Positions 1 through 27,463 of a stretch of DNA of 34,834 bases are shown in pieces. Every line of letters begins with the position of its first letter. Position 1 is the stretch's first letter. The translations under genes were made by a program, and so were the position numbers. The stretch is from a virus (lineage: Duplodnaviria > Heunggongvirae > Uroviricota > Caudoviricetes): positions 1 to 34,834 of IMG/VR virus record IMGVR_UViG_2541047861_000007; one strand, written 5' to 3'. The notes beneath the pieces were generated by a model. The model saw only the letters and a program-made list of their open reading frames with translations, had not been told where the DNA came from and made no database searches.

Positions 1-1293
<1,293 letters not shown>

Positions 1294-1512: not shown

Positions 1513-1925
1513 TCATGTCTGTGAAATAGGGTGCCTTATCGACCTTACCCTGGCAACCGATTGACGGGGGATTGCTCCCCCGTCGCGGTTTCCTTACTGC
1601 TTACACTGTAAGAACGCCGCAAACTCCGCTCCCCAGAAGCTCATCCGTATTTCGCACAGCGAACCGTGCAGCATCCAGATGATGAGGATTACCGTCACGC
1701 AGAATGTGATGGCTGTAAGCGATTTTTGCGACATAGCGCTTGCTCCTTTGTTGGAGAGGCGCTAACCTATCACTTGCTTAAGGTAGATATGTTAGGGCCT
1801 CGGTTAAACAGAGATGTTTTCCGGGGCCTTTCCACATCTGGCCTTCGGGTATTCCCTCCGACCATCAGCCGAAAGGCACCCGCGCGTAATCTATCGCTTT
1901 TTTGTTACTCCGGCAATTCTGCCTG

Positions 1926-2186
1926 TTAATTCTGAGGTAAAGGCAAACTCATCTGATTGTTTCCCCTGTGTGAAGCTGGCAGCTCATGCCACGGGATACC
2001 TTCTGAAGAGTGAACGCCGGGGGCGTGTTTCGATGTGAATTTATGGAAAGCTTCCAGTGTTGAGAAACTTATGCCGCATTCCAGATTGTTACACTGGTAA
2101 TATTTTTTCCGTACGGTGTTTGAATCATTTTCCGAACGACTGGTGCGGATACGGGCAGATGCGCCACAAAGCGGACAACGGAACAT
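1926..2186 (-). CDS. ogr: Ogr/Delta-type zinc-finger late-gene transcription activator
   Basis: N-terminus MFRCPLCGASARIRTSR...YYQCNNLECGISF has the CxxC-(22)-CxxxxC zinc-finger arrangement and motif order of P2 Ogr. The ORF is 86 aa, longer at the C-terminus than P2 Ogr (72 aa). Confidence 0.85.
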   Translation of the reverse strand: MFRCPLCGASARIRTSRSENDSNTVRKKYYQCNNLECGISFSTLEAFHKFTSKHAPGVHSSEGIPWHELPASHRGNNQMSLPLPQN

Positions 2187-2364
2187 AGCGACCTCCCTTA
2201 ACGTGGTGCTGTCTCTATTCTAAGCTGTACAAGTTTTAATTCCAACTGACTGCCTACTTTGAACAAGAGATGAACTATTAATTTGGAGATCTCTGTGAGA
2301 CTGTTTTATACCGATGGATTAAGTAAGGCTATTTCTATATTAAGGTTAGTTTTGAATAAAAGAA

Positions 2365-2395
2365 TTTGTCAAAAAAGCATTTGGAGTAGACAATC
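2365..2395 (+). promoter_or_regulatory. Candidate sigma70 promoter for the TIR-domain gene
   Basis: ttgtca-(17)-gacaat upstream of a GGAG Shine-Dalgarno about 8 nt before the ATG at 2430; AT-rich context. Confidence 0.3.
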
Positions 2396-2429
2396 CTCTT
2401 TTCACATTGCTTAAGCAGGAGCTTAATGA

Positions 2430-3344
2430 ATGAAAACCGATTTGTTTATTTCATATGCTTGGACTTCAGATTCCCATAGAGAATGGGTTCGGTTGCTTGC
2501 AAGCCATCTCGACCTTATTGGTTATACGGTTAAAATCGATGAAGCTGTTAGATATGGTTCAAGCTTATCTGGTTTCATGCGAGAGGTTATCGAAACCGAT
2601 CATGTGTTGTTGATTGTCGATGATAATTATGTCGAACGCGCTAATAACAATCCGAATTCTGGAGTTGGTATTGAAAACAAATGGATAAGTGACGCTTTTA
2701 TGGAAAAGCCCTCGACATGGTTGTCAGTTATCTTTGTTCGAAATCCTGAGCGAAAACTACCTAAGTGGCTTGAGGGGCATAATCCTAAAGGGTTTGATTT
2801 TAATTCTAATTCTGATAGAAATGAATTTCCCGGCTCTATGCAGATCGATGCTATTTGGCGTTGGATTGAAGGGCTGCCGGCAGATAAAAAGTATTCAATC
2901 CCATTACCGGTTTATCGTCAACGTATTGCACGGCTTGAACATATTGATATTCTCCGAGCCCCTTCGCGTTATGCAAATCCAGCACTCAAGGGATGTGAGA
3001 TTTTTCGTTTCAGGGATTATTCCCACTATACGGTTGGTAACAGTGAGTACCAATTTAAAATAGTATTTAGTGCATGCTCTCATGATAGTGTTTACATCTA
3101 TATAGATTGTGAACTTAAAGCTATAGGATTGATCACATCTGTAGAATTCAATCCACAAACTGTCGAGTCTTTTTTAACTCCAGGTCGTTCTGTTAATGCG
3201 ACTGTCGGGCAAAAGGTAGTCCTACTAAACTCCTATGGGGTTCTGTGCATTGTAACAATTGATAATGTGCAACATGAGATTAATACCGCAGAGTATGTTC
3301 ATCCACATGTGGAGTTCTCATACGAAATACTTGAAAAAAACTAG
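2430..3344 (+). CDS. TIR-domain protein with an uncharacterised C-terminal domain (candidate defence/abortive-infection cargo)
   Basis: 304-aa ORF. The N-terminal 130 aa (DLFISYAWTSDSHREWVRLLASHLDLIGYTVKIDEAV..GSSLSGFMREVIETDHVLLIVDDNYVERANN) follow the classic TIR pattern (FISY, W..L, G..V..D, I.LLS..Y..S). The C-terminal 170 aa have no motif I recognise. Strongly AT-rich, opposite strand to flanking D and ogr. Confidence 0.65.
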   Translation: MKTDLFISYAWTSDSHREWVRLLASHLDLIGYTVKIDEAVRYGSSLSGFMREVIETDHVLLIVDDNYVERANNNPNSGVGIENKWISDAFMEKPSTWLSVIFVRNPERKLPKWLEGHNPKGFDFNSNSDRNEFPGSMQIDAIWRWIEGLPADKKYSIPLPVYRQRIARLEHIDILRAPSRYANPALKGCEIFRFRDYSHYTVGNSEYQFKIVFSACSHDSVYIYIDCELKAIGLITSVEFNPQTVESFLTPGRSVNATVGQKVVLLNSYGVLCIVTIDNVQHEINTAEYVHPHVEFSYEILEKN

Positions 3345-3490
3345 TGCCACATTATAAAAACTTCAGCGATTCTCATACTCCATTTTACTGATAACGTCCG
3401 CTCTTGGTGCAGAGCGGACTACTACTAGATAAGGTATAGTTTTGTCTGTAATCGTGTTTTTTTTAGGGGTGAGCAATACATCTAAGTTGC

Positions 3491-4591
3491 TCACTCTGTT
3501 TCTGCTATCCATTCCGGGATTTTTGCCTCAAGCTCAAGCTGTGTGGTAAAGCCGCTGTTATCAATGGTGTGCTCGGCTTTTGCAATAATCCAGTCCTGAT
3601 TATCAATCTCGCTTTTAAATCCTGTTACCGTGCCATGCATTTCGGGGTAGAGTTCTGCACGTCCACGTGCCAGCGTGATGGAGAATGATGCGGCTCCGCG
3701 TTGTAGCTGCTGCCACTTTGCCGCCGCTGCACGTCTTGCTGCCTGCTCGTTCTGATAAGTCTTGCGTAACACAAACACGTTGCCTTCCGCACCTTCCATA
3801 TAGTCACCTTCACGGCTGCTGCTTTTCTCCTTTTTCGGTTTGCGGCGTTTCACGCTGACTTTTTTCTTTTTCCCGTAATTAAGATCAAGCCAGTAAGCGC
3901 GTCCCCCCGTATACGCTTCGCGGTCAGCAATGCGGAACTGATGGCGATCGCCACTGCTGCGCGTGATGGCGAACGAGGGCAACGGCTGGCCCTGTGCGTT
4001 CACGCCACCGCCTGGCATGATGAATAACAGATTACCGCTTTTTACCGTAGTGATTGCGCCCAACATTTCCGCCATGCGCGTAAGGAAGGACATGTCGCTT
4101 TCTTCGGTCTGGTCGGCGTGGTCGATTTCGATATCCATCAGCATTTCGCTGATTTGCGGTTTCAGACCGTACCGATGAGCGATGGCGGATACCACGCGCT
4201 CAACGGTCACATCATGCCAGGATACTTCACGTTTAACGTTAAATTCATCCCGAAAATCTGCGCTTCTGGCTGAAACAGTCAGCCTGTCCGGCGGTCCTTC
4301 GTGTGCGATTTCATCAACAATGTAAGACCCTTTTTCTGTCAGCGGTTCGCCTTTCCAGCCAATGAGAACCGTCAGGCGCGCGCCCCGTGGCGGTAGCTGC
4401 AACTGACCATCCGCATCATCCAGCGTGATGGTGAGCTGGTCTGCCTCAAATCCCCGGTTGTCGGTCAGCGACAGGCTCATCAGGCGCTCTGCCACGCCGG
4501 ACAGCGTTTTACCCTCCGCGAGAATATCAAAATCCGGCATTTTCACGGGGTCTGTGCTCTGACTGAGCAATTGCATGGTGGTGTCGGTCAT
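3491..4591 (-). CDS. D: Tail protein D (late control gene D family, baseplate hub)
   Basis: Translation has the length and character of phage gpD-family proteins. Start placed at the ATG preceded by AGGGAGG (MTDTTMQLL) rather than the upstream end of the open frame. Confidence 0.8.
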   Translation of the reverse strand: MTDTTMQLLSQSTDPVKMPDFDILAEGKTLSGVAERLMSLSLTDNRGFEADQLTITLDDADGQLQLPPRGARLTVLIGWKGEPLTEKGSYIVDEIAHEGPPDRLTVSARSADFRDEFNVKREVSWHDVTVERVVSAIAHRYGLKPQISEMLMDIEIDHADQTEESDMSFLTRMAEMLGAITTVKSGNLLFIMPGGGVNAQGQPLPSFAITRSSGDRHQFRIADREAYTGGRAYWLDLNYGKKKKVSVKRRKPKKEKSSSREGDYMEGAEGNVFVLRKTYQNEQAARRAAAAKWQQLQRGAASFSITLARGRAELYPEMHGTVTGFKSEIDNQDWIIAKAEHTIDNSGFTTQLELEAKIPEWIAETE

Positions 4592-4748
4592 CTGCTCCCT
4601 CCCTGTGCGGCATGGTCGCATGTGTGTGCGGGCGGGGTTACTGCTTTTTGTTGTCGCCGGGCGGCAAGAACGGCGCAGGGGTGAGATTACGCGCGTGGTG
4701 GGTGATGATTGTTGCCGAATCATTTAACGGATACAAGGGGCTGAAGCT

Positions 4749-5933
4749 ATGAGTGAAACTCGTTTTCATGGTGCCCGTGTTACGGAAAATACCGACCTGG
4801 TAACAGCGATTAACGATGTTGATTCCAGCGTTATCGGTATCGTGGCAACGGCGGATGATGCGGACGCGAAGCTGTTCCCGCTGAACAAGCCCACACTGCT
4901 GACCCGCGTCAATGACGTGCTGGGAAAATGCGGGACAACGGGGACGCTTTATCGTGCGCTTAAGGCCATCGCAGACCAGGTGAGCACGAAGGTGATCGTC
5001 GTTCGCGTGGCTGAACACAAAGAAGAAGACGGAAAGACGCAGGATCAACTGGTTATCGGTGGTTCTGAGGATGACGGCAGCTATACGGGGATGTATGCGC
5101 TGCTTGTTGCAGAGCAGGATGAAAGCATCGGATACCGTCCGCGTATTCTGGCCGCGCCGGAGCTGGACACGGAGGCTGTAACAAAATCCCTGTGCGTGAT
5201 TGCAGGTAAACTGCGCGCGTTTGTGTATGCCGCATGTCATGGCTGTAACACGATGGCTGAGTCGATTACCTACCGCCAGAAATTCAACGAACGTGAGGTG
5301 ATGCTCTTATGGCCGGACTTCATCGCCTACAACCCGAAAAGTGGCAAAAACGAAACGTTCCCCGCGCCTGCCTATGCGTGCGGCCTTCGTGCGTACATTG
5401 ACCATGAGCAGGGCTGGCACAAATCACTGTCCAACGTTCCGGTTAAAAATGTGCTGGGGATGTCGAGGCATGTGTTCTGGTCGTTGCAGGCCGAAGACAG
5501 CGATGCCAACAGCCTCAACAACAAAGAAATCACGACCATTATTCGTCGCAACGGGTTCCGCTTCTGGGGCAACCGCACACCGGAAACGAACGCCTACATC
5601 TTTGAGGTGTATACCCGAACCGCACAGGTGCTGGCTGATTCAATTGCGGAAGCGCAGTTTGAAACCATCGACAGTCCACTGACGCCTGCGAACGTGAAGG
5701 ATGTTATCAGTGCCATCAGGGCAAAACTGGATTCACTGGTTACTGCCGGGAAACTGATTGGCGCAGAGTGCTGGTATGACGTGGTGGATAACAGCACCAC
5801 GGATTTACGTCAGGGGCGTGTGCGTATTCGCTACAAATATACGCCCGTTCCGCCACTGGAAGACATGGAGCTTTACCAGACGTTTACTGATGAATACTTT
5901 GAACCCGCATTTGCGGTGCTGGGAGGTGCCTGA
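4749..5933 (+). CDS. FI: Contractile tail sheath protein FI
   Basis: 394 aa, motif-by-motif similarity to P2 gpFI (FPLNKP, KLRAF, WPDF, QGWHKSLSNV, RRNGFRFWGNRT, YTRTAQVLADS, YTPVPPLE). Confidence 0.95.
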   Translation: MSETRFHGARVTENTDLVTAINDVDSSVIGIVATADDADAKLFPLNKPTLLTRVNDVLGKCGTTGTLYRALKAIADQVSTKVIVVRVAEHKEEDGKTQDQLVIGGSEDDGSYTGMYALLVAEQDESIGYRPRILAAPELDTEAVTKSLCVIAGKLRAFVYAACHGCNTMAESITYRQKFNEREVMLLWPDFIAYNPKSGKNETFPAPAYACGLRAYIDHEQGWHKSLSNVPVKNVLGMSRHVFWSLQAEDSDANSLNNKEITTIIRRNGFRFWGNRTPETNAYIFEVYTRTAQVLADSIAEAQFETIDSPLTPANVKDVISAIRAKLDSLVTAGKLIGAECWYDVVDNSTTDLRQGRVRIRYKYTPVPPLEDMELYQTFTDEYFEPAFAVLGGA

Positions 5934-6445
5934 TGGCTGTGCCAAAACATCTTCGCTTTTTTACGCTGTTTGTGGATGGCGAAAACGAAGTGGGTAAGGT
6001 GACGTCCGTCACTCTGCCTAAGCTGACGCGCAAAACCGACAGCTACCGGGGTGGTGGCATGATGGGGGCGGTAAGTATTGATCTCGGCCTGGACGACTCC
6101 GCGCTTGATGCGAGCTTTGTCATGGGGGGCGCAGTTCGTGAGCTGTTCCTTAAGTATGGCGGCACGATTGACGGCACACTGCTGCGTTTTGCGGGTGAAT
6201 ACTACACCGATGCAGAAAGCGACCTGTATGAAGTCGAAATGCGCGGACGTGTGACGGAAATTGATATGGGGGAAGCCAAACAGGGCGAAGCCACATCACA
6301 CACTTACGCCATTAAAAACACCTACTACAAGCTGAGCGTTAACGATCGCCCGTTGTGGGAGATTGACCTGCTGAACTTCATTTACCGGAAGGACGGCAAG
6401 GACATTGCGCCCGATCGCATCCGTTCCGCGCTTGGGCTTGGCTGA
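5933..6445 (+). CDS. FII: Tail tube protein FII
   Basis: 170 aa directly after FI with an overlapping stop/start; size and position match P2 gpFII. Confidence 0.9.
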   Translation: MAVPKHLRFFTLFVDGENEVGKVTSVTLPKLTRKTDSYRGGGMMGAVSIDLGLDDSALDASFVMGGAVRELFLKYGGTIDGTLLRFAGEYYTDAESDLYEVEMRGRVTEIDMGEAKQGEATSHTYAIKNTYYKLSVNDRPLWEIDLLNFIYRKDGKDIAPDRIRSALGLG

Positions 6446-6500
6446 TAAGTAATATGCAGGCGGCGCAGTGCGTCGCCTCTGACTGAAAAGGAGACCACTG

Positions 6501-6875
6501 ATGAAAAACATCGATACTGAAACCCAGAATAACACCGTGGCGGATGATGTGACGGCAGATGAGGATATGGCTGTCGAACGTGGTGTAAAACTTTCCCGGC
6601 CAATTGAGCGTGGCGGCGAAAAAATCACGTATGTGGAGATCACCGGGGCTATTGAGCAGGCTGGATCCCTGCGAGGTTTGTCGCTGTCTGATGTGCTGAA
6701 TCTGAAAGCGGATACCATGTTCACGCTGTTGCCTCGCGTGACTTCGCCACGACTGGATGAAGTGATGATTAAAAAAATGTCGTCACGCGATTTTATTCAG
6801 TTGTGCGCTGTGGCTGTAAATTTTATGAGCGAGCCAGACTCTGGCGCGAAGAGCGTGCAGGAGACGGCAGCGTAA
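6501..6875 (+). CDS. E: Tail assembly chaperone E (frame-0 product)
   Basis: 124-aa ORF between tail tube and tape measure, acidic N-terminus, at the position of P2 gene E. Confidence 0.85.
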   Translation: MKNIDTETQNNTVADDVTADEDMAVERGVKLSRPIERGGEKITYVEITGAIEQAGSLRGLSLSDVLNLKADTMFTLLPRVTSPRLDEVMIKKMSSRDFIQLCAVAVNFMSEPDSGAKSVQETAA

Positions 6876-7039
6876 TCACCCTGGTGTGCTTTGAGCACAT
6901 CGAAGATCTGGTGGCGGATATTGCCGCCATTTTTAACTGGTCGCCCGCCGAAATCTTCATGATGACGCCCGGCGAAGTGGTTAGCTGGCGTGAGCGGGCG
7001 GCACTTCGCAGCGGGAATGCAGACAATGAAGACTCTTGA
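6501..7039 (+). CDS. E+E' fusion produced by programmed -1 frameshift (slip site not fixed)
   Basis: The -1 frame is open from 6773 to the stop at 7037..7039 and encodes LVCFEHIEDLVADIAAIFNWSPAEIFMMTPGEVVSWRERAALRSG, the E'-type extension. Candidate slip sites are the A7 run near 6771..6777 and TTTTATT/TTTTATG heptamers at about 6791 and 6821. Confidence 0.6.
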
Positions 7040-9833
7040 TATCCGGGTCGCTTTCAGCGCCGTTGACAGGCTGACCCGGCCTGCCGAAAACGCCCGCCGC
7101 CTGATGGGGCAGTTTGGTGACTCTATCCAGCGAACGCAGGGGGCGATCAAAAATCTCGAGCGTCAGGCGCGTTCATTTGAGCGCGCCCGTGACGCTGTCA
7201 GTAAAGCGGATGCGGGCATCGTAAAAGCACGACGCCAGCTTAACGCCCTTAATCAGTTACAACGCACGGGTACAGTGCTCAGCGAAAAACAGCAAAAGCT
7301 GATGCAGCAGTTAAGCACCCGGCTTGAACGCCTGAATGAATCGCGCACACGGGAAATTCAGAAAATGCGGGAGCTTGGCGGAGAGCTGAAACGCCACGGC
7401 ATTTCCCTGACAGGCAGCGATAACACCATCCAGCAGGCCATCAGACGCACCGAACAGTACAACAACCAGCTTGAACGCGAACGGCAGGCGCTTGCGCGTG
7501 TAACGCGGGCGCGTGAGCGGTATTCGCGCGCGCAGGAAACTGCGGGAAAACTGAAAACAGGTGGTGCGCTGGCAATTGGTGCGGCAGCGGCTGGCGGTTA
7601 TGCCGCCGGGCGTTTTTTGCAGCCTGCGATCGGGTTCGGGAAAGAGATGTCCCGCGTTCAGGCGCTGACGCGAATCGACAAAAACAGCCCGCAGTTTAAG
7701 GCGCTGCGTGAGCAGGCGTTAAAACTTGGCTCTGAAACGCAGTTCACCGCAGGCGATGCCGCCAGTGGACAGGCATTTCTTGCAATGGCTGGCTTCACTC
7801 CGCAGGCCATTCAGGCTGCGCTTCCCGGCGTACTGAGCATGGCAACGGCTGGCGGTATGGATCTCGGCGAGACGGCAGATATTGGCTCAAATATCCTGAC
7901 GCAGTTCGGCCTTTCTGCTGACCAGATGGACCGGGTCGGTGACACACTCACCGCAGCGTTTACCCGTACCAACACTGACCTTCGCGCACTGGGCGAAACC
8001 ATGAAATATGCAGGTCCGGTGGCGGGTAAGCTGGGAATATCGCTGGAGCAGGCCGCAGCGATGGCTGGCGTGCTGGCGAATATGGGCATCAGAGGGAGTG
8101 ATGCCGGGACGGCAATGCGTGCCAGCCTGGCTCGTCTGGCATCACCGCCAAAGGCAGCGGCAGAAGCGCTGAAAGAACTGGGCGTGTCCGTCTCGGATGC
8201 CGGGGGCAAAATGCGCCCGATGGAAGATCTGCTGGCTGACCTTTATAAAGCTACCCGCAAATACGGGGAAGTTGACCGGGTATCCTTCTTTAAGGACATC
8301 GCCGGGGAAGAGGCTTTCACATCGTTTATGGCACTCGTTGATGCGGCGGGTGACGGTTCCTTACCCAAACTGAGAAAAGAACTTGAGGGCGCACGCGGTG
8401 AGGCTGAACGCACGGCAAAGGTTATGGCCGACAACCTTGATGGCGACCTGAAAAATCTCGACAGCGCATGGGAAGGTCTTCGTATTCGCATCAGTGATCT
8501 GGTTGACGGTTCGCTGCGTTCTGTCACGCAGTGGCTAACGCGGGTGGTCTCAAAAGTGACGGCACTGGCGCAGGCCCATCCTGTACTGACGCGCCAGCTA
8601 CTGATTGCAGGCGGTGCGCTGCTGGCAGTGACTGCAACCGTAGGCTCGTTGTCGCTTGCTCTTGGTGTGCTTGCTGGCCCACTGGCAAAACTGCGTCTTG
8701 GTTTTTCCCTCCTGACCGGATCAATGAATGCTGTCAGGCTCCTGCCTGCACTATGGGGAATGGTGACGGGTTCCGTTTCGTTACTGGGGGGCGCTATCGG
8801 GGCGCTGTTCAGCCCGGTCGGATTGATTGCTGCTGCGTTTGTGGCTGCGGCAGTTCTCATCTGGAAATACTGGGAACCCATCAAGGCGTTTTATGCCGGG
8901 GTGTTCAGCGGGATTATGGAGCGGCTGGCCCCGTTACGCGAAACCTTTGAACGGTTTGGTCCTGTTTTTGACGCAATCGGAAGCGGGATCAGCCAGGTGT
9001 TTAACTGGTTTAAATCGCTGTTGTCACCGATGGAGTCCAGCAAGGAAACGCTGGATAAATGCACAAGTGCTGGCGAGGTATTCGGTAACGTTCTTGGCGG
9101 TGCGTTACAGCTTGTCCTGACGCCTGCAAAAATGCTGCTGGATACGTTGGCGTGGATACTTGAAAAACTCGGTGTTCTTCCGGATGAAGCGGAAAGGGCG
9201 CGCAAGAAAATCGAAGACGCACAGCGTGCGGCCATTCTTCAGGACAAGGTTGCTCTGTTTCAGGGAGACATTGCGAAAATCAATCCGCCGAAGTCTGCGG
9301 AAAATGGCAATGGCACCGGAGGCGATAAACCCAAAGACAACAAACCGCTCACAGACAGCAATACCGGTACGCTACGCAGACTCAGCAAGATTGCTGATAA
9401 CACAGGTAAGCTGGTTGATGAGACGAAAAAACGCATTGGCCCTGGCGATATTGTCTTTAAGAACCTGCCCCGCGCACTTGCTGTTCGTGGGGAGTGGCAG
9501 GAGCGGAAGATTGCGCAGGTCAGTAAGCCTGCCCCCGCAATTAAGATCGCACCCGTGGTCCAGGCTCCGCTGCCTCCGGCGCTGGTCCCTGTTGTTGCGG
9601 CCAGCTCCCGCCCGGTGGCGGAGGCCATACGATCGCCAGTGGCGTCAGTTCCTGCAACTTCCCGTAACCGGGAGCCTGTTGCCTCCGGATTTGGCGGTGA
9701 AATTCATGTTCATCTGCATAACGTTGTTACGCAGAATCCCCGCGAACTGGCGAAACTGGTCGGTGAAATGGTCAGGGCAGAAATGGAACGGCGCGCCCGT
9801 GCCGGGCGTGGCAGTTTTTACGATAAAGATTGA
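7017..9833 (+). CDS. T: Tail tape measure protein T
   Basis: Long ORF after E/E' with an N-terminal coiled-coil region, Ala/Gly-rich hydrophobic central segments and a C-terminal domain. Start is ambiguous (GTG 6990, ATG 7017 or ATG 7026). Confidence 0.9.
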   Translation: MQTMKTLDIRVAFSAVDRLTRPAENARRLMGQFGDSIQRTQGAIKNLERQARSFERARDAVSKADAGIVKARRQLNALNQLQRTGTVLSEKQQKLMQQLSTRLERLNESRTREIQKMRELGGELKRHGISLTGSDNTIQQAIRRTEQYNNQLERERQALARVTRARERYSRAQETAGKLKTGGALAIGAAAAGGYAAGRFLQPAIGFGKEMSRVQALTRIDKNSPQFKALREQALKLGSETQFTAGDAASGQAFLAMAGFTPQAIQAALPGVLSMATAGGMDLGETADIGSNILTQFGLSADQMDRVGDTLTAAFTRTNTDLRALGETMKYAGPVAGKLGISLEQAAAMAGVLANMGIRGSDAGTAMRASLARLASPPKAAAEALKELGVSVSDAGGKMRPMEDLLADLYKATRKYGEVDRVSFFKDIAGEEAFTSFMALVDAAGDGSLPKLRKELEGARGEAERTAKVMADNLDGDLKNLDSAWEGLRIRISDLVDGSLRSVTQWLTRVVSKVTALAQAHPVLTRQLLIAGGALLAVTATVGSLSLALGVLAGPLAKLRLGFSLLTGSMNAVRLLPALWGMVTGSVSLLGGAIGALFSPVGLIAAAFVAAAVLIWKYWEPIKAFYAGVFSGIMERLAPLRETFERFGPVFDAIGSGISQVFNWFKSLLSPMESSKETLDKCTSAGEVFGNVLGGALQLVLTPAKMLLDTLAWILEKLGVLPDEAERARKKIEDAQRAAILQDKVALFQGDIAKINPPKSAENGNGTGGDKPKDNKPLTDSNTGTLRRLSKIADNTGKLVDETKKRIGPGDIVFKNLPRALAVRGEWQERKIAQVSKPAPAIKIAPVVQAPLPPALVPVVAASSRPVAEAIRSPVASVPATSRNREPVASGFGGEIHVHLHNVVTQNPRELAKLVGEMVRAEMERRARAGRGSFYDKD

Positions 9834-9839
9834 GGAGTC

Positions 9840-10334
9840 ATGGCCATGATGATGATCTACGGCATGTTTGTTTTTGAGTTGCGCACATTGCCGCATCAGC
9901 AGTTACAGCAAAATAAAAGCTGGCGACATGTGAAAAATGAACGCGTTAACCGTTCAGCAAGCTGGCAGTATATCGGGGCAGGCGATGATCGCATCGTTCT
10001 TTCTGGTGTGCTTTATCCTGAAATTACAGGTGGCGAAGTGTCGCTGTCGCTGCTGACCACGCAGGCGTATACAGGACGCCCCTGGCCTCTTATTGATGGC
10101 GTCGGGCAGATTTACGGCATGTATGTCCTGACCGAAACGAATACGACCCGTTCCGAGTTTGATCGCTACGGTAAGGCGAAAAAGATAGAATTTTCACTGA
10201 CTCTTGAACGCTGTGATGAGGATTTGCGGGAGCGCCTGCAATCCTCATCGTTCAGTGATATGCTGTCCGGCTTCAAAGATAAGGTCACATCATCCCTTAA
10301 CAGCGCGGCCAGCTCCGTTAAAGGGCTGTTTTGA
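9840..10334 (+). CDS. U: Tail protein U
   Basis: 164 aa; IYGMFVFELRTLPHQQLQ..VLYPEITGG..AWPLIDGVGQIYGMYVL parallels P2 gpU. Confidence 0.9.
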   Translation: MAMMMIYGMFVFELRTLPHQQLQQNKSWRHVKNERVNRSASWQYIGAGDDRIVLSGVLYPEITGGEVSLSLLTTQAYTGRPWPLIDGVGQIYGMYVLTETNTTRSEFDRYGKAKKIEFSLTLERCDEDLRERLQSSSFSDMLSGFKDKVTSSLNSAASSVKGLF

Positions 10335-10340
10335 TTAACG

Positions 10341-10372
10341 CAAAACCGCTAATGGTCAGATTAGCGGTTTTT
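10341..10372. terminator. Bidirectional rho-independent terminator between convergent U and invertase genes
   Basis: aaaaccgctaatggtcagattagcggtttttt: 9-bp stem with an A-tract before and T-tract after. Confidence 0.65.
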
Positions 10373-10962
10373 TATTTTCCCTGAGTCTGCCCGGTTGTTT
10401 CTTCAGCCTGTATATCGCCTACAGGGTGATAACGATAAATCGTCGATATACCGATGTCGTAAATGATCGCCAGTTGTTTCCTGTCATGGCCGTTTTTAAT
10501 CAGCCTTTCTATTTGCTCATGTTGTTCTTTTGTCAACTTCGGGCGACGTCCGCCAATGCGTCCCTGTGCTCGTGCTGCTGCCAGCCCGGCCAGTGTACGC
10601 TCTACAATTAATTCACGTTCCATTTCTGCTAAAGCTCCCATGACGTGAAAAAAGAAACGCCCCATGGGTGTTGATGTGTCAATGCTGTCCGTCAGGCTAC
10701 GGAAATTAACACCTTTTTCCCGCAATTCCTCAATAAGCGTGATCAGGTGTTTCTTACTCCTGCCCAGCCTGTCCAGCTTCCAGACAACCAGCGTATCTCC
10801 TTCTGATAGCGTTCTGAGCAGTTTTTTCAATCCCGGTCTGGCTGATTTCGTTCCGCTGATTTTATCTTCAAAAATCAGTTCACATCCTGCGCACTCCAGC
10901 GCGTTACGCTGCAATTCCGTGTTCTGGTCATTTGTTGATACGCGAACATAACCAATAAGCAT
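10372..10962 (-). CDS. Serine-recombinase DNA invertase (Gin/Pin/Cin/Hin family)
   Basis: MLIGYVRVSTNDQNTELQRNAL..DTLVVWKLDRLGRS..FRSLTDSIDTSTPMGRFFFHVMGALAEMERELI..GRIGGRRPKLT is near-identical in motif content to Mu Gin, including the catalytic Ser in YVRVST and a C-terminal HTH. Confidence 0.93.
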   Translation of the reverse strand: MLIGYVRVSTNDQNTELQRNALECAGCELIFEDKISGTKSARPGLKKLLRTLSEGDTLVVWKLDRLGRSKKHLITLIEELREKGVNFRSLTDSIDTSTPMGRFFFHVMGALAEMERELIVERTLAGLAAARAQGRIGGRRPKLTKEQHEQIERLIKNGHDRKQLAIIYDIGISTIYRYHPVGDIQAEETTGQTQGK

Positions 10963-10989
10963 GAGCATCCCCCTGAATAAAAACCGGAG

Positions 10990-11403
10990 ATGATGCCCGT
11001 TACCCGTTATCTCTGCATTTTCACAAACGTTGGTTTGGGAGAAGCAGCGAAACGGGGGGTGGGAACAGGGGAAAATCAGATACCGGACATGGCTTCTTTT
11101 GCCAGTGGTGATGGATGGATGAAATTACCCAACGGGAAAATCCTGCAATATGGTCGTGGTGCGATTACGCCGACATTATCGACGCAAACAATGAGAATTA
11201 CATTCAGCATCCCTTTTCCTAAAGAAGTGGACTGCGCCATGCTTACCCATTCTGGTGATGGTGGTGCGCCTTTAGGCGCTGGACGGGGATTCGTGATGAC
11301 TGCAGAAGGTCCAACACTAACCGGTTTTAATTCCGCTTACAGAACTGCATCAACCAGCTCCACAGTATCGATGAATTACAGTTGGTGGGCTGTTGGTGAG
11401 TAA
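10990..11403 (+). CDS. Alternative (currently silent) tail-fibre C-terminal segment inside the invertible region
   Basis: Open frame on the opposite strand from H, containing VGLGE encoded by the same 15-bp sequence as LGLGE in H; no independent promoter expected. Confidence 0.65.
11019..11044. repeat. Gix/cix-like recombination site, left end of invertible segment (approximate)
   Basis: ttttcacaaacgTTGGTTTGGGAGAAg; the reverse complement reads TTCTCCCAAACC-AA-CGTTTGTGAA, resembling the 12+2+12 architecture of Gin-family sites and shared in inverted orientation with the H site. Confidence 0.5.
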
Positions 11404-11414
11404 TTTTATTCAGG

Positions 11415-11867
11415 GTGATTTATATGAACGAATATGTTTATAGTGCCAGACATAATGCTTTTTTCCCTGTGGATATGATTGATAAATATAAATCAGAGGG
11501 ATGGGATTTATCAGATGTGAAAGAAGTTAATCAAAATATTGTCGGTGAATTTATGGCTGAGCCGCCACAAGGAAAAATCCGTATTGCCGGAGATGATGGG
11601 CTGCCTGCGTGGGCAGATATTCCTCAACCCACGCATGAAGAGCTTATTGAAATTACTGAATCAGAAAGACAGCTACTAATTAACCAGGCCAACGAATACA
11701 TGAACAGTAAGCAATGGCCCGGTAAAGCCGCTATTGGTCGTCTGAAAGGTGAGGAACTGGCGCAATATAATTTGTGGCTGGATTATCTGGATGCACTGGA
11801 GCTGGTTGATACCTCCAGTGCGCCAGATATTGAATGGCCTACGCCTCCGGCAATTCAGGCCAGATGA
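11415..11867 (+). CDS. Tail fibre assembly protein (alternative, partner of the silent fibre tip)
   Basis: 150-aa ORF directly after the alternative fibre segment; 3' end overlaps convergently with the other assembly gene, the pattern of the Mu U/U' pair. Confidence 0.75.
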   Translation: MIYMNEYVYSARHNAFFPVDMIDKYKSEGWDLSDVKEVNQNIVGEFMAEPPQGKIRIAGDDGLPAWADIPQPTHEELIEITESERQLLINQANEYMNSKQWPGKAAIGRLKGEELAQYNLWLDYLDALELVDTSSAPDIEWPTPPAIQAR

Positions 11868-12441
11868 CATCCGGCGCGGTGCTGGTATCTGTTGCCGTCA
11901 CCGCGTCAATGTAATCCAGCACAGCGTTAAGTCTGGTTGTTTCTGCCTGTGTCAGTTTACGTCCGGCCTGCAATTTCAGTTGAATCAGACTGATGGAAGC
12001 CATTGCAGTATCAATCAGCGACTGGCGCTGTGCTTCTGCTGCATCTACTGCGGCGCTGTGCTGTGCCTCGGTATCCGTCACCCATTTCTCACCATCCCAT
12101 TTATCGTATGACGTTAACGGGGCGATAGTGGTTGTATTTTCAGGATAATCACCCGGAGCTGTGATTTCTTTCGATTCTCCTGTTTCGGTGCTATAGACAA
12201 TTTCACCGCGATGATCTGGCACATATTCCCATGAGTTTAAATCCATCGAACGGCAGATAGCATAACCCGCCTTATGTGTGCCAGGGGCATCTAAACAGGA
12301 ATATGCAGGGATACCGACACCAATGGCAAGATATTCATTTGAAGTGGAAATATATTCCCGTGTTTCACCATCATAGTTATAGACGGTAATATTCCCCGCC
12401 TTCGTGGCAATAAGTTCGCTATTTAATACGGCTTTATCCAT
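11839..12441 (-). CDS. G: Tail fibre assembly protein G (expressed orientation)
   Basis: 200-aa ORF immediately after H with an ATGA-type stop/start overlap; C-terminal ..TATDTSTAPDVIWPELPEA parallels the alternative copy (..VDTSSAPDIEWPTPPA). Confidence 0.8.
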   Translation of the reverse strand: MDKAVLNSELIATKAGNITVYNYDGETREYISTSNEYLAIGVGIPAYSCLDAPGTHKAGYAICRSMDLNSWEYVPDHRGEIVYSTETGESKEITAPGDYPENTTTIAPLTSYDKWDGEKWVTDTEAQHSAAVDAAEAQRQSLIDTAMASISLIQLKLQAGRKLTQAETTRLNAVLDYIDAVTATDTSTAPDVIWPELPEA

Positions 12442-13964
12442 TATGCAGCTCTCACGATATAGTTAAATGCAATATTTCGTGGACGGGTTTCGCTCCCACC
12501 TGTGTTACCAATACTCCCTCGTGTATGTAGCGTTGGTGATGGAATCAGAGTTCCTCCGGCATCGGCAGCATCAAGCCCCCGGCCTTGCGTATATGCTCTT
12601 CTGAAGATTGTCGCCAGTTCCCATTCCTCTTTTGAATCATACCCATCGTTGGCAACAACAATATGGCGGTGTTTTTCCAGCATCCCAGTCTGAATGCTCA
12701 ATAAAGCACGTCCTGCATCAATACCACGCCTGTCATCCCATCCACGAATAAACTCACCACGGAGATCAGGTAGTTTCCCTGATGGATATGCTGTAGCAAG
12801 ATGGGGATATTTCACCTTATCAAAGGCAGCGCCGTTGCATTTCAGCCAGCCCGTTGGCGGGGTTGCGGAGGGCCACGGAACAGGTACACCAACAGGCAAT
12901 GCAGAGCCTTCTCCCAAACCAAGATAATCAAGAACTCCCTGTGTGCTGGGCTTACTAAGAATTGCACGACCAACACTTGTCAGTGCAGTTAACGCGGCAC
13001 GATCTACCCCTGTAAAATAAGGGAGTTTATCTGCCGCTGTAGCAAGCCCTGCCAGAGCAGTGAGTATGGCGTTTGCCGGTTGTCTTCCATTAGCCAGGTC
13101 GTATGCAGCCTTTACCGCTTTTGGCGTTGCAGCCAGTGTTTCAGATGTGCTGTTGGTTGCACTACTGAGCTGAACAAGCCCTTTTTGCGTCGTGGTGGCG
13201 TTCTGGGCGGTATATTTCCCGTTAGCCAGGTCATACGCCGCCTTGACCGCTTTTGGCGTTGCAGCCAGTGTTTCAGACGTGCTGTTTGTGGCGCTACTGA
13301 GTTGAACAAGGCCTTTTCGTGCCGTAGTCGCATCCTGAGCGGTATATTTCCCGTTAGCCAGGTCATATGCAGCCTTTACCGCTTTCGGTGTTGCGGCCAG
13401 TGTTTCAGATGTACTGTTAGTTGCACTGCTTAACTGAGTAAAACCTTTTGCGGTCAGCGAGGCGTCCGGGTGGCGTCGTGACTGTTCGTGCTCAGAAATT
13501 TTGTCATCCACATATTTACGTGTTGCCAGTACCACAGCCGGGTCGATTTTCAGCGTGATGGCTTCGGTGTTCGTGACAACCAGAATCATGCGGATAGTCT
13601 GGGTACGACCACTGCCTTCCTGCAACTGCGGTTTGTACGTTTCCGGGCAGTTCGCCACCGCAATGAGTACGCCTTCATCATCATAAAGGCCAATCTCACG
13701 TATCCAGAATCCACCCTCGTTCTCAGGGATGATTTGCTCCGCAATAATCTGGTTCTGGCTGTTCGGGTCAACACTCAGAAGATTCAGCGGTGCAATGCGT
13801 TTCTGGTTAATCAGTTTTGTTTGTGCAGGATCTGGTGTCGGTAATACACCATTTGCATCACCAACGGCCATTTGCGTCAGATTCAGCTTACTGCCGAGCA
13901 TCGTCGCGTTAGCCAGTCGTGCTGCGCCCTGATTAGTCAGAATGGCGTAGTATTTCACTGTCAT
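12441..13964 (-). CDS. H: Tail fibre protein H (constant N-terminal part plus variable C-terminal part)
   Basis: 507 aa with three tandem 44-aa repeats and a C-terminal receptor-binding-type region (WLKCNGAAFDKVKYPHLATAYPSGKLPDLRGEFIRGWDD); follows gpI as in P2. Confidence 0.9.
   Translation of the reverse strand: MTVKYYAILTNQGAARLANATMLGSKLNLTQMAVGDANGVLPTPDPAQTKLINQKRIAPLNLLSVDPNSQNQIIAEQIIPENEGGFWIREIGLYDDEGVLIAVANCPETYKPQLQEGSGRTQTIRMILVVTNTEAITLKIDPAVVLATRKYVDDKISEHEQSRRHPDASLTAKGFTQLSSATNSTSETLAATPKAVKAAYDLANGKYTAQDATTARKGLVQLSSATNSTSETLAATPKAVKAAYDLANGKYTAQNATTTQKGLVQLSSATNSTSETLAATPKAVKAAYDLANGRQPANAILTALAGLATAADKLPYFTGVDRAALTALTSVGRAILSKPSTQGVLDYLGLGEGSALPVGVPVPWPSATPPTGWLKCNGAAFDKVKYPHLATAYPSGKLPDLRGEFIRGWDDRRGIDAGRALLSIQTGMLEKHRHIVVANDGYDSKEEWELATIFRRAYTQGRGLDAADAGGTLIPSPTLHTRGSIGNTGGSETRPRNIAFNYIVRAA
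12909..12934. repeat. Gix/cix-like recombination site inside H at the constant/variable junction (approximate)
   Basis: Plus strand TTCTCCCAAACC-AA-GATAATCAAGAA; the 15-bp core is identical, in inverted orientation, to the site near 11029..11043. Confidence 0.5.
13083..13448 (-). repeat. Tandem 132-bp (44-codon) in-frame repeats within H, about 2.8 copies
   Basis: Protein repeat KG(F/L)(T/V)QLSSATNSTSETLAATPKAVKAAYDLANGKYTAQ.ATT.. at residues 173-216, 217-260 and 261-294; the repeat is also visible in the overlapping artefactual ORFs 13080..13433 and 13112..13366. Confidence 0.8.
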
Positions 13965-14569
13965 GCGTTTACTCTCAGGTTATCAATTAAATGAATGGCC
14001 GGGGCCGGGAAATAATCCCCTTCGACAACAATGGACTCCGGGGTGTAGGGATAAACCGTCAGGGCGTCGCCGTAATAGCATCCCGTACCAACGAAAATCT
14101 TTCCGTTCACACTCAGACTGATCGCCAGCCCTGTCAGATGGCGACTTACTGGTTTTGCATCCGCAATAAGGCGCTCAAGTTCCTGATACATTTCATCGGT
14201 GATGCCCTGATCAAGTACTCCGACAACAATGCGAAATGTTCCCGGCTCCTCGTTGAGTTGCCACCACTCCTTTACTTCAATCAGGTAGCCGAGAGGCTCC
14301 ACGGCTCTTCGCAGGGCGCTGATGGTTCCTTTGTGTCGGTGTATCAGCCATGCATCACGAATCACCTGTCGCTTTGTCTCTTCCGGCCAGTTGCGATCCC
14401 AGCGGTCAACGGAAAACGCCCAGGCGAGATAAGGCAGCAGATGTACCGGGCAGGTGTCCGGCGACCACAGCGTGTTGAGGTCTACCGGAATGTCTGTAAT
14501 GCGTGTTCCGACGGCTTCGGCACAACGCATGAAATTGCTGGCTGATGGTGGTAACAACGAATTACTCAT
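13961..14569 (-). CDS. I: Baseplate protein I
   Basis: Position between J and H; start placed at MSNSLLPPSAS (the ORF track extends upstream to 14602). Confidence 0.85.
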   Translation of the reverse strand: MSNSLLPPSASNFMRCAEAVGTRITDIPVDLNTLWSPDTCPVHLLPYLAWAFSVDRWDRNWPEETKRQVIRDAWLIHRHKGTISALRRAVEPLGYLIEVKEWWQLNEEPGTFRIVVGVLDQGITDEMYQELERLIADAKPVSRHLTGLAISLSVNGKIFVGTGCYYGDALTVYPYTPESIVVEGDYFPAPAIHLIDNLRVNA

Positions 14570-15458
14570 TACGCCCACCTTCGCTGATGGTGAGCGACTC
14601 ACAGCGCGCCGCCTGTATGTCGCTGATGGCCATATTCTGTGTGGGTTCGATTATCTCCACGCGTTGCACACCGTGCACATGCAGTGCGGCAGCAATGGCG
14701 GACAACGCCACGTCCTGACCGATAAGCCCCTGCTCAGCCAGCCACTTCCTGAACGACGATTCAGCCGCAGCCAGAATAGGTTCGGATTCCGGGCCAGGGT
14801 AAAAGTACAGTTTTGCATTCAGCCGCCATGTCACGATTCTGGCGCTCTGTACGGTCAGGCGGTCGGCCACCGGGCGGGTATCCTCTGCATTCAGAACGGC
14901 GCGAACGGTATTAAGCAACGCCTCCGTTGCTGTGCCGTCGCCCTCAGTGGACAGGATGGAAACCGTCACGTTGGCCGGAGACGGGCTGATGGCCCGCGCG
15001 TCGCGTACCAGACCGCTGGCGCTGCGTGCAAAATACTCGTATGCACCTGACGGGCCAGCAACACTCAGACCGTCATACGCCCGTTGCGCCCGCAGTCTCA
15101 GTGAGGTGTCACTTTCCATCACCGCGTCGGTGGTATCCGTTGCCGGAGTGATAACCAGGCGCTTTGTGTTCATATTGCCCGCGAGGTTGTCCAGGTCTGT
15201 CCCGGCGCTGTGGCTTAGCATGCAGGCGCGTGCACCCTCATTGACCCGCTGGCGTAACAGCATTTCACGAAACGCTGTTGTCTGGGCGATAACGTTCAGG
15301 GGTTCCGATTCCAGCTCCAGCGCGGCGGAGACGGCTTCACGCTGTTCGGCAGGATAGGACGCAATCATCATGGCCTTTGTGTCAGCCAGAATTGCCTCAA
15401 AATCAGGCTCCGCGATGATGGCGGGTTCCGGTAACTGGGAAAGGTCAACAGCAGGCAT
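14562..15458 (-). CDS. J: Baseplate assembly protein J
   Basis: 298 aa, position and size match P2 gpJ. Confidence 0.9.
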   Translation of the reverse strand: MPAVDLSQLPEPAIIAEPDFEAILADTKAMMIASYPAEQREAVSAALELESEPLNVIAQTTAFREMLLRQRVNEGARACMLSHSAGTDLDNLAGNMNTKRLVITPATDTTDAVMESDTSLRLRAQRAYDGLSVAGPSGAYEYFARSASGLVRDARAISPSPANVTVSILSTEGDGTATEALLNTVRAVLNAEDTRPVADRLTVQSARIVTWRLNAKLYFYPGPESEPILAAAESSFRKWLAEQGLIGQDVALSAIAAALHVHGVQRVEIIEPTQNMAISDIQAARCESLTISEGGRNE

Positions 15459-15461
15459 GAT

Positions 15462-15812
15462 TTACTCTCTCAGCGTGATGGTTAATTCAACATTCTGCAT
15501 GGTCTGCATGACAATGCCCGACAGCGTCACCCCGGCGCGGCCTCCTGCCTTCCAGACAACGTCGATGGCGTCCAGGGCAATGCGGGGTTCCCATCGTGTC
15601 AGCGCAATCACGGCAGCACTCATGCATTGCAGACGAGTTGTGTTATTCATGGGTTCGTCAATCAAATCAGGCACAAGGCTGCCATATTCCCGTCGCATAA
15701 CCCGGCTTGCCAGCGGGGTGATCAGGATGTCCCTGACTGACTGTTTCAGGTGCTCCATATCGTTCAGGTTTCCCGTCCCGTCCGGATTCATTCCTGTGTA
15801 GCGGGTTGTCAC
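15462..15812 (-). CDS. W: Baseplate wedge protein W
   Basis: 116 aa between V and J, size of P2 gpW. Confidence 0.88.
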   Translation of the reverse strand: MTTRYTGMNPDGTGNLNDMEHLKQSVRDILITPLASRVMRREYGSLVPDLIDEPMNNTTRLQCMSAAVIALTRWEPRIALDAIDVVWKAGGRAGVTLSGIVMQTMQNVELTITLRE

Positions 15813-26098: not shown

Positions 26099-27463
26099 AT
26101 GAATATAACTACTAATCGGAATGGTTTTGAGAATGGTTTTGATATTACATCTGACATATTTAATCGTAAGACATTATATGATCAAATGATACGGCTTATT
26201 ATTAATGCTCCTGACTCAAATTTGGTTTTTGCGTTAGATGATATATGGGGTAGCGGTAAAACATCATTTGTTAAGATGTTAAAATCAGAATTAGAATTAA
26301 CTAATAGTGAATATATAGATGTTGTTTATTTCGATGCATTTGAAAATGATTATCAATCAGATCCATTTATTTCAATATCATCTGAGCTATATAATTTACT
26401 AAAACACAGAGGAGTAGAGGCCGAAGATGTAGCTGATCGCATTATTAAAACTGGTAAGAAAATAGGTGCAAAAATATTAATCGGAGGTGCAAAGGTAGCT
26501 ATTACAACCCTGACAGCAGGTGTTGTGAATGGTTCTGCTCTTGATGCGGCAGGAAAAACAGTTAGCGATTCCATTAATAGTGAGTTAGAGTCTTTTGTTG
26601 AAGAGAAAATAAAATCCATGGAGCAGGAAAAAAACTCAATTGCTGACTTTAAAAAAGCTTTAGAAGAAATATATACAAATACAAAGAGAAAAACCTTGAT
26701 TATTATTGATGAACTTGATCGAGCCCGCCCAGATTATTCTCTAGAGCTATTGGAAAAAATTAAGCATCTTTTTTCTGTGAAAGGTATGGTTTTCTTATTG
26801 GTAATGAATCGAGAGCAATTTGAAAAGGGAATTGCATATAAATACGGTGATATCAATACTGGTCTGTACTTGAATAAATTTATTCATTATTGGTTTTCTT
26901 TGCCCAAAATAAATATGTATGACTCTATGGTGTTACAAGCATCTAACAAAACAACGATTACAACGTATATTAAAAAAACTCTACAACAGAATCACTCTCT
27001 AGGTATTAATACAGATGGTGCTTTTGTAAGAGTCTTATCATGCTTGATTGAAACCAATAATTGCTCGCTGCGAGAAGTTGAACGATGTATTTCAACTATG
27101 CTTGTAGTGGATAATCATACGTGTATAGCGAATAATGATGATAATTATTATATGATTGCATTAGCATTGGTTTGTTTCTTGAAAGTAACTTCTCCAGATA
27201 TGTTAAATCGACTACTTAAGAAGGAAATGTCTTCTGAAGAGATATTAGAATTACTTAATATAAAATCTGATTATTTTTCATCAAAGATGGAAATTAAATT
27301 GCTTAAAGAACTACTGGATTATTATTACATCGATAAAGAAACATTAAAACTATTACGTAATGAAAAGGGAAGTTATGTTCAGCGTATAGAAGGTGATTTT
27401 GCGTTTGAATATAACCATATCTTTAATATTTCCACATCAATAGCTAATATGACTATAAAATAA
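26099..27463 (+). CDS. KAP-family P-loop NTPase (candidate phage-exclusion/abortive-infection protein)
   Basis: 454 aa; Walker A in ALDDIWGSGKTSFVKM, Walker B in LIIIDELDRARPDYSLELLEKIKHLF, the KAP NTPase signature (the family that includes F-plasmid PifA). Very AT-rich with rare-codon usage; GGAG Shine-Dalgarno 7 nt upstream. Confidence 0.8.
   Translation: MNITTNRNGFENGFDITSDIFNRKTLYDQMIRLIINAPDSNLVFALDDIWGSGKTSFVKMLKSELELTNSEYIDVVYFDAFENDYQSDPFISISSELYNLLKHRGVEAEDVADRIIKTGKKIGAKILIGGAKVAITTLTAGVVNGSALDAAGKTVSDSINSELESFVEEKIKSMEQEKNSIADFKKALEEIYTNTKRKTLIIIDELDRARPDYSLELLEKIKHLFSVKGMVFLLVMNREQFEKGIAYKYGDINTGLYLNKFIHYWFSLPKINMYDSMVLQASNKTTITTYIKKTLQQNHSLGINTDGAFVRVLSCLIETNNCSLREVERCISTMLVVDNHTCIANNDDNYYMIALALVCFLKVTSPDMLNRLLKKEMSSEEILELLNIKSDYFSSKMEIKLLKELLDYYYIDKETLKLLRNEKGSYVQRIEGDFAFEYNHIFNISTSIANMTIK

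Follow-up and report, generated by a model that had tools for sequence, protein, structure and literature searches.

A probable Din-family inversion switch for tail-fibre tips in a P88-like prophage next to serS

Between a DNA invertase gene and the constant part of the tail-fibre gene H, this prophage carries a second fibre end in opposite orientation, and the question raised by the locus is whether the intervening DNA is the invertible segment of a switch that still works. The window, the whole stretch of 34,834 nucleotides analysed here, very probably (we put the chance at roughly 0.9, from sequence comparison) contains a working inversion switch of the Din family (Gin/Cin/Pin/Hin-type) in a P88-like prophage next to serS.

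The prophage is integrated adjacent to serS and its backbone is P88-like (Xuanwuvirus/Gemsvirus), P2-related rather than P2 proper. P88 and 500465-2 are 93–94% identical to it over the aligning parts, which amount to 65–71% of window positions 1–16000, and in both a DNA invertase is annotated at the same position, downstream of H, where it converges on gpU. Among the related E. coli prophages that match best, the majority have an annotated recombinase next to two genes for tail-fibre assembly; for the P88-like lineage an invertase module is usual and no exception. In canonical P2 the place between G and FI is taken by fun(Z), and there is no invertase, as an earlier note on this DNA had said. 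The invertase gene and the elements on which its product would act are the following.

10342–10371, no strand: hairpin with a 12-bp stem and A/T runs on both sides (inverted repeat and terminator-like match)
10372–10962, minus strand: Din-family serine DNA invertase, 196 aa (Pfam Resolvase and HTH_7)
10878–10941, minus strand: candidate recombinational enhancer in the 5' end of the invertase gene, with two candidate Fis-type 15-bp cores
11018–11043, no strand: invertase-proximal 26-bp site, TTTTCACAAACG-TT-GGTTTGGGAGAA, core 11030–11031
12909–12934, no strand: H-embedded 26-bp site, TTCTCCCAAACC-AA-GATAATCAAGAA, core 12921–12922

The invertase, rightly placed by the earlier note in the Gin family, scores 4.3e-51 for Resolvase and 3.2e-12 for HTH_7, matches the Gin crystal-structure sequence 4m6f at E=2.6e-90, and is 72% identical to Mu Gin and 82% to both e14 PinE and the P88 invertase. 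It has the layout of a small serine recombinase of about 190 aa, with an N-terminal catalytic domain containing the Ser9 nucleophile and a C-terminal helix-turn-helix; it shares Ser9, the YVRVST motif and the R65/R68 region unchanged with Gin and PinE. The protein is full length, and alignment with Gin, PinE and the P88 invertase revealed none of the inactivating changes that the earlier note had allowed for, the catalytic and Fis-contact residues being kept. In Hin, Q151, R154 and L155 together with basic residues 47, 48 and 51 contact Fis/enhancer, and such residues are specific to Fis/enhancer-dependent invertases (PMC3798978). The window invertase has Q150, R153 and L154 at the first three of these positions, in invariant columns, and K46, K47 and R50 at the basic helix-B positions. 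The hairpin between gpU (plus strand) and the invertase gene (minus strand) is likely to be a bidirectional terminator closing both convergent transcripts.

Din-family systems have an enhancer with two Fis sites, roughly 100 bp away from the closest crossover site and within the invertase gene at its 5' end. Two candidate cores were located in the window gene on what we take to be the pattern of the Hin and Gin enhancers. The first (gene nucleotides 22–36, window 10927–10941, GTATCAACAAATGAC) is identical to that in Mu gin and has its centre some 97 bp from the core of the proximal crossover site; the second (gene nucleotides 71–85, window 10878–10892, GCGCAGGATGTGAAC) equals Mu gin at 14 of its 15 positions. 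G1 and C15 are retained in 53 of 53 unique relatives at the distal candidate core and in 52 of the 52 relatives listed at the proximal one. Synonymous-site conservation across the candidate enhancer was not significant (p=0.06) in a weak test, on a stretch that also encodes invariant protein. Inversion is probably dependent on Fis and the enhancer.

The 15-bp inverted core described in the earlier note is present and perfect (TTGGTTTGGGAGAAG / CTTCTCCCAAACCAA, at 11030–11044 and 12908–12922), the left arm lying one base away from the 11029–11043 given there. A perfect inverted repeat of this length occurred in 1 of 200 dinucleotide shuffles of positions 10000–14000. The repeats lie in two 26-bp sites, also foreseen, with the 12+2+12 architecture of the Din family, in which imperfect half-sites surround a 2-bp core. 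The two sites are in inverted orientation, their cores reading TT and AA on the plus strand, with a spacing of 1891 bp between their first core bases. Three half-sites fit the consensus TTnTCnnAAAC(C/G), and the outer half-site of the H-embedded site (TTCTTGATTATC) is weak, with about 5 of 9 consensus positions, one below close relatives; P88-like relatives have TTCTTGATTACC-TT-GGTTTGGGAGAA at this site. The invertase-proximal site lies 67–68 bp upstream of the invertase start codon, a position and architecture repeated in dozens of related loci. A scan with the half-site-plus-core 14-mer, allowing up to 3 mismatches, found no third crossover site in or near the module, and an extra match at 6261, with 3 mismatches, is within chance expectation. 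With its two sites the module is not a multiple-inversion system of the p15B Min or three-repeat EPEC type, which has more than two.

Both sites are also coding sequence, and the earlier note had placed one of them at the LGLGE codons of H. The H-embedded site encodes ...DYLGLGEGS..., and the invertase-proximal site reads in frame with a silent C-terminal fibre segment of 123 aa on the plus strand, opposite to H. The 15-bp identity might therefore reflect the LGLGE peptide and nothing more, the conserved fibre motif GLGE being encoded in both cassettes, and the segment would then be no recombination unit. The identity, however, is at the nucleotide level, third codon positions included, the flanks show the half-site symmetry of the family, the lack of which the earlier note had named among its grounds for refutation, and the site lies at the family-typical distance from the invertase. 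The fibre genes themselves are arranged as follows.

12441–13964, minus strand: whole fibre gene H, 507 aa in the present orientation (ORF list)
12921–13964, minus strand: constant N-terminal part of H, outside the invertible segment (Pfam)
12441–12920, minus strand: variable C-terminus of H (Sv), about 159 aa from GLGE to the stop, active (Pfam Collar)
11839–12441, minus strand: assembly gene of the active cassette, 200 aa (Pfam Caudo_TAP, 3.4e-33)
11424–11867, plus strand: assembly gene of the silent cassette, 147 aa (Pfam Caudo_TAP, 3.3e-31)
11032–11403, plus strand: silent fibre C-terminus (Sv'), 123 aa from GLGE (Pfam Gp53-like_C)

The segment contains two opposed cassettes, each made up of a fibre C-terminus and its own assembly gene. 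The constant part of H has a Phage_tail_fib N-terminal domain (2.2e-62) and three fibre repeats. The active tip is a tail-collar domain (5.3e-14), 57% identical to the C-terminus of e14 StfE with conserved ends and a divergent middle, and its assembly protein is 93% identical to e14 TfaE. The silent tip is a gp53-like C-terminal domain (1.1e-12), in the present orientation without an N-terminal fibre part; the C-terminal half of its assembly protein is 67% identical to e14 TfaP. The earlier note had recognized both assembly genes, but the start of the silent one is more likely ATG 11424 than the GTG 11415 adopted there, and in a sister prophage PGAP calls this gene as 444 nt (147 aa). The two genes converge and overlap by 29 nt (11839–11867). 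When 11030–12922 is flipped in silico, the constant part runs uninterrupted and in frame into the other tip, giving an alternative fibre of 471 aa in place of the 507 aa read now.

The flipped arrangement exists in nature. Over 2701 nt the flipped sequence matches E. coli APEC E12053 at 100%; the prophage of that strain occupies the same serS locus, shows 99.9% identity over the remaining 21.9 kb and has Sv' as its expressed fibre end. The difference from the window starts exactly at the repeat edge, the breakpoint being unresolvable inside the 15 identical bases. Both orientations therefore occur naturally within one prophage lineage, and the segment of about 1.9 kb that had been predicted to exchange the tip of H together with its chaperone is borne out by the in-frame flip and by this prophage. 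With the module as query and a match over at least 80% of it, 61 complete E. coli genomes have it in the window's arrangement and 98 have it flipped, and at IMG/VR loci, too, homologous segments are found either way round with respect to the invertase. Sequencing and PCR have been used to measure inversion in e14 and at loci of two P2-like prophages (PMC4272514). The APEC E12053 prophage is the exact recombinant predicted, and a coincidence of coding is effectively refuted by it, given the near-identity elsewhere and the junction at the repeat edge.

It might still be asked whether an invertase made the change. Any inverted repeat can in principle mediate inversion, by RecA-dependent or illegitimate recombination, and a breakpoint lost among 15 identical bases would fit such an event between strains as well. 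A repeat of 15 bp is, however, far under the length of an efficient substrate for homologous recombination, this one belongs to a genuine Din site with an intact invertase 67 bp away, and the same arrangement flips repeatedly across many lineages. Recombination at short repeats is on these grounds hardly a credible source of the inversion.

Invertase-mediated switching would proceed as in the rest of the Din family, for which Fis, negative supercoiling and sites in cis are requirements. Invertase dimers would bind 11018–11043 and 12909–12934, inverted relative to each other, and assemble into a synaptic tetramer on supercoiled DNA, probably with host Fis at the enhancer in the first 90 bp or so of the invertase gene. 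Staggered cuts at the central TT/AA dinucleotide, a 180-degree rotation of one pair of subunits and religation would leave the 1.89-kb segment inverted. Since the segment includes neither the promoter nor the first 348 codons of H, inversion would join the constant part to either tip: in the state seen in the window to the tail-collar-type tip, with the 200-aa assembly chaperone, and in the flipped state to the gp53-like tip, with the 147-aa chaperone. A lysogen population in which the segment switches would release two kinds of virion that probably recognize different receptors, since the tips fall into different Pfam families (Collar and Gp53-like_C). Inversion may thereby alter the host range.

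The switch could also be a relic, once functional and now inverting at no meaningful rate in this prophage, with the difference from APEC E12053 the trace of one rare past event. The degenerate outer half-site in H, with its one mismatch more than in relatives, points that way, and so does the mosaic invertase, which in sliding-window identity comes nearest to e14 pinE over roughly its first 100 codons and to P88 over the C-terminal part, DNA-binding domain included; in principle the DNA-binding domain and the sites could be mismatched. Against this, the window and APEC E12053 prophages are 99.9% identical, so the inversion must be very recent, the invertase shows no inactivating change, and the inner half-sites and cores are perfect; weak outer half-sites are moreover tolerated in known members such as hixR. 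We regard a frozen switch as unlikely, and a working one remains the preferred reading.

The switch is already known in kind. Its mechanism has been textbook material since the 1980s, from Mu G/Gin, P1 C/Cin and e14 P/Pin, and many E. coli prophages have it, so the locus carries little weight as a discovery and its practical value is in annotation and typing. The ORFs of the silent cassette are not independent genes; a difference in the orientation of the segment between otherwise identical prophages is neither an assembly error nor strain divergence; and host-range prediction for this prophage should consider two fibre tips.

Of the known systems the closest is the e14 P segment with PinE, from the cryptic prophage of E. 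coli K-12 (Plasterk and van de Putte 1985, cited in PMC4272514), because the e14 (Pin) sites and those of the window agree at nearly every base. Inner half-site and core (TTCTCCCAAACC-AA) are identical on both sides, and the invertase-proximal sites differ by 1 nt. Both systems run in the order fibre constant part, site, Sv, tfa, convergent tfa', Sv', site, invertase; the segment is about 1.8–1.9 kb, and tfaP and tfaE overlap by 29 nt as the window assembly genes do. The systems differ in that e14 is a defective lambdoid remnant and the window prophage a complete P88-like myovirus; the window fibre has a 348-aa N-terminus of the P2 gpH type, its collar-type tip is merely 57% identical to StfE, its gp53-like tip is unrelated to StfP (E=0.23), and its invertase has the P88-like C-terminal part.

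E14-like modules show 89–92% megablast identity to the window from inside the invertase gene (about 10522–10541) to the H-embedded site, where homology stops at about 12923–12926, within a few bases of the core, and the prophages that harbour them have quite different backbones. The crossover site may in addition be a point of cassette exchange between unrelated phages, an idea reportedly raised by Sandmeier and colleagues in the 1990s, but we hold this to be doubtful; a boundary here is also trivially expected because the constant fibre parts are unrelated. In such an exchange foreign tips, chaperones, the enhancer and most of the invertase gene would be captured together, by invertase-mediated intermolecular recombination at the site and homologous recombination in the conserved invertase gene, and the module boundary would not be ordinary mosaicism.

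The Mu G segment, to which the earlier note had likened the assembly genes, shares the logic and the gene order (Sc, gix, Sv-U, U'-Sv', gix, gin), the direction of transcription common to invertase and fibre gene, a 72% identical invertase, 12+2+12 sites that likewise fall within a ...NLGL(Q/G)E... coding motif, and candidate enhancer cores that are identical or nearly so. It differs in its core dinucleotide (TC/GA rather than TT/AA), in a length of about 3 kb and in variable fibre parts that are unrelated, the match being limited to the fibre repeat in the constant part. The convergent overlap for which Mu had been cited is found in e14 and not in Mu, where U (ending at 33502) and U' (starting at 33531) are 28 nt apart.

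The P2-like prophages of EPEC E2348/69 likewise switch the fibre C-terminus with an invertase and inverted repeats, and coexisting orientations were found there by sequencing and PCR (PMC4272514); compared by description, one of their loci has three repeats and four variants and the window has two sites. P88 itself, with the 82% identical invertase whose C-terminal part is the closest match to that of the window, has a cassette of the Mu type, in which a segment of about 3 kb lies between gix-like sites with a TC core, and 500465-2 has pix-type sites and tips that differ from those of the window. Within the lineage, then, one cassette can be exchanged for another.

The tail-fibre switch of this prophage is an ordinary, well-understood and widely distributed one, and it is found in both orientations within one prophage lineage. 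An invertase gene, inverted sites and opposed cassettes, which the earlier note had observed, are confirmed; each variable part of the fibre, as also proposed, has its own assembly gene. The parts are as follows.

10372..10962, minus strand: invertase, a protein with Resolvase and HTH_7 domains
11018-11043: invertase-proximal 26-bp crossover site, TTTTCACAAACG-TT-GGTTTGGGAGAA
ORF ending at 11403, plus strand: silent fibre C-terminus, with a Gp53-like C-terminal domain
11424..11867, plus strand: assembly gene of the silent cassette, a Caudo_TAP tail-fibre assembly protein
11839..12441, minus strand: assembly gene of the active cassette, a Caudo_TAP tail-fibre assembly protein
12441..13964, minus strand: gene H, with a P2-type tail-collar-fibre N-terminal domain, three fibre repeats and a Collar domain
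12909-12934: H-embedded 26-bp crossover site, TTCTCCCAAACC-AA-GATAATCAAGAA

A repeat search finds, at 11030-11044 and 12908-12922, a perfect inverted repeat of 15 bp, a length reached in only one of 200 dinucleotide shuffles of 10000-14000. The repeat falls within 26-bp sites comparable with those of e14 and Mu. The two cores are 1891 bp apart. The H-embedded site does fall at the LGLGE codons, as had been suggested, and encodes DYLGLGEGS, while the invertase-proximal site is in frame with the silent C-terminus. In the window the H-embedded site has a weak outer half-site (TTCTTGATTATC), which reads ...TACC in close relatives. A shufflon-like system of many sites was considered and rejected, as a search with the half-site-plus-core 14-mer, allowing up to 3 mismatches, gave no third site in or near the module. 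Among 80 IMG/VR loci with genes for close invertase relatives, such a pair of sites is seen again and again: one lies ~67 bp upstream of the invertase, the other, inverted, at a distance of 1.5-1.95 kb for pix-type (e14-like, TT/AA core) or 2.9-3.1 kb for gix-type (Mu-like, TC/GA core) sites.

When 11030..12922 is inverted in silico, H runs via LGLGE into the gp53-like tip to give an uninterrupted fibre of 471 aa. The flipped sequence of 2701 nt has a full-length, 100% match in Escherichia coli O2:K1:H4 APEC E12053, whose prophage sits at the same serS junction as that of the window. By megablast, this prophage and positions 12935-34834 are 99.9% identical across 99% of the stretch, and the genome ranked next reaches 96%. 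An alignment of the two sequences shows identity on the invertase side and divergence that begins exactly at the outer edge of the repeat. A prophage of such identity, at the same junction and diverging from the repeat, is therefore one lineage in both orientations, and the swap of the fibre tip by the invertase that the earlier note had predicted is supported by the in-frame flip and by the flipped arrangement in APEC E12053. Of complete E. coli genomes with at least 80% of the module, 61 have the window's arrangement and 98 the flipped one, and homologous inner segments face either way with respect to the invertase at the IMG/VR loci. In e14, and at loci in two EPEC P2-like prophages, orientations coexist, as measured by sequencing and PCR (Goldberg et al., PMC4272514). 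For the switch in the window, a change of host range, dependence on Fis and the frequency of switching are inferences.

ORF finders and PGAP call free-standing genes for a ‘phage tail protein’ or ‘gp53-like domain-containing protein’ on the silent cassette (10990..11403, plus strand, in the window; 20694..21212 in L003, the APEC E12053 prophage). What is called there is a set of 3' gene segments that have no promoter and are not genes in their own right. Within H, a tandem repeat of 132 nt (44 aa; 13087..13482, minus strand) encodes a fibre-shaft motif and is present in 2.6 copies in the window versus 4.6 in the otherwise 99.9%-identical APEC E12053 prophage; fibre length therefore varies within the lineage too. 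Gene D (tail/baseplate hub, 410 aa; 3491..4723, minus strand) is intact in the window, but the APEC E12053 annotation has a shortened CDS and a pseudogene fragment in its place (L003 13192..14036), and that strain's match to 12935-34834 covers an IS3-family transposase, so that the sister prophage may be defective.

The invertase is 72% identical to Mu Gin and 82% identical to e14 PinE and to the invertases of P88 and 500465-2. In the alignment, Ser9 and all surrounding motifs are invariant, and the best solved structure is that of Gin (4m6f, E=2.6e-90). A PADLOC scan of the protein matched no defence-system model, and NCBIfam gave distant serine-recombinase models only, all below their cut-offs. 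Q151, R154 and L155 of Hin, together with basic residues at 47, 48 and 51, are reported to be conserved only in invertases dependent on Fis and an enhancer (McLean et al., PMC3798978), and the window's invertase has the corresponding Q150, R153, L154, K46, K47 and R50. The gene is a mosaic, and thus a recombinant, nearest to e14 pinE over its first ~100 codons and nearest to P88 from about codon 110, the DNA-binding domain included.

A recombinational enhancer probably lies within the invertase gene. Nucleotides 22-36 of the gene (GTATCAACAAATGAC) are identical to Mu gin and nucleotides 71-85 (GCGCAGGATGTGAAC) match it at 14 of 15 positions; both are candidate Fis cores, placed by the layout of the Hin and Gin enhancers. 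The first candidate core is ~97 bp from the crossover core, which agrees with the ~100 bp reported for Hin (PMC3798978). The candidate stretch also encodes an invariant peptide. Third codon positions were compared at invariant-residue codons of 53 unique invertase genes, and conservation was weakly higher in codons 8-29, with an entropy of 0.73 versus 0.88 elsewhere (p=0.06).

The P2-related prophage adjoins serS (1..1293, by Pfam). Positions 1-16000 are 93-94% identical to P88 (Xuanwuvirus), 500465-2 (Gemsvirus) and Citrobacter phiSM in the aligned parts, which make up 65-71% of that stretch. Gene D is followed by FI-FII-E-T-U (4749..10334, plus strand) and then by the invertase, fibre cassettes, H, I, J, W and V, all on the minus strand as is D, an order shared with P88, 500465-2 and phiSM. 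The FI-to-U block thus runs opposite to D and the H-I-J-W-V operon, blocks that are collinear in P2. A large secondary inversion by the invertase was considered as its origin and rejected, the layout being fixed in all three relatives, and a repeat search around the block found no convincing flanking repeat to account for its orientation. The reversed block is a feature of the lineage, outside the fibre switch. P2 proper has H-G, then fun(Z), then FI to D on one strand and has no invertase, so the remark that P2 itself does not have the module was correct.

Two genes look like defence cargo. One, for a 304-aa protein (2430..3344, plus strand), lies between ogr and gene D; by Pfam the protein has TIR_2 and SEFIR matches, and among the PADLOC defence models it hits bSEFIR (1.9e-44). 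No gene is annotated at this position in P88, and 500465-2 carries another, hypothetical gene there, so that the position looks like a variable slot for anti-phage cargo. A 454-aa KAP-family P-loop NTPase (26099..27463, plus strand), between the portal gene and the replication gene, hits PDC-S20, a candidate defence system in PADLOC (1.8e-75), has weaker matches to PifA and QatA, and is likely to be a second defence cargo gene. Correspondence with the annotated sister prophage places a hok/gef-family toxin gene and an ogr/delta-like zinc-finger regulator at ~1594..2186 (minus strand), between serS and the TIR gene.

At the DNA level, the cassette is matched best (~92%) in prophages of unrelated backbone. 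This homology starts within the invertase gene, at ~10522-10541 for e14-like modules by megablast, and stops at the H-embedded site. Such limits are the usual mosaicism of tail fibres, and they leave room for site-mediated exchange of cassettes between prophages.

On sequence likeness, the nearest known system is the P segment of e14. In K-12 this segment is in the opposite orientation with partly different cassettes; alignment of the whole segment is therefore uninformative, and the comparison was made by the proteins of its parts. Identity is 93% between TfaE and the 200-aa chaperone of the active cassette, 67% between the C-terminal half of TfaP and the 147-aa chaperone of the silent one, and 57% between the StfE C-terminus and the active tip, which are conserved at their ends and vary in the middle; StfP is unrelated to the second tip. 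The K-12 site next to pinE is TTCTCCCAAACC-AA-CGTTTATGAAAA and that in stfP is CTCTCGAAAACC-TT-GGTTTGGGAGAA; inner half-site and core are identical to the window's at both ends, and the pinE-adjacent site differs from the invertase-proximal one by one base. The two assembly genes are convergent and overlap by 29 nt, as do e14 tfaP and tfaE. The earlier note had seen this overlap but likened it to Mu, wrongly, because a gap of 28 nt separates U from U' in Mu. The gix sites of Mu are built in the same way around a TC/GA core, and P88 combines gix-type sites with a Mu-like 3-kb cassette.
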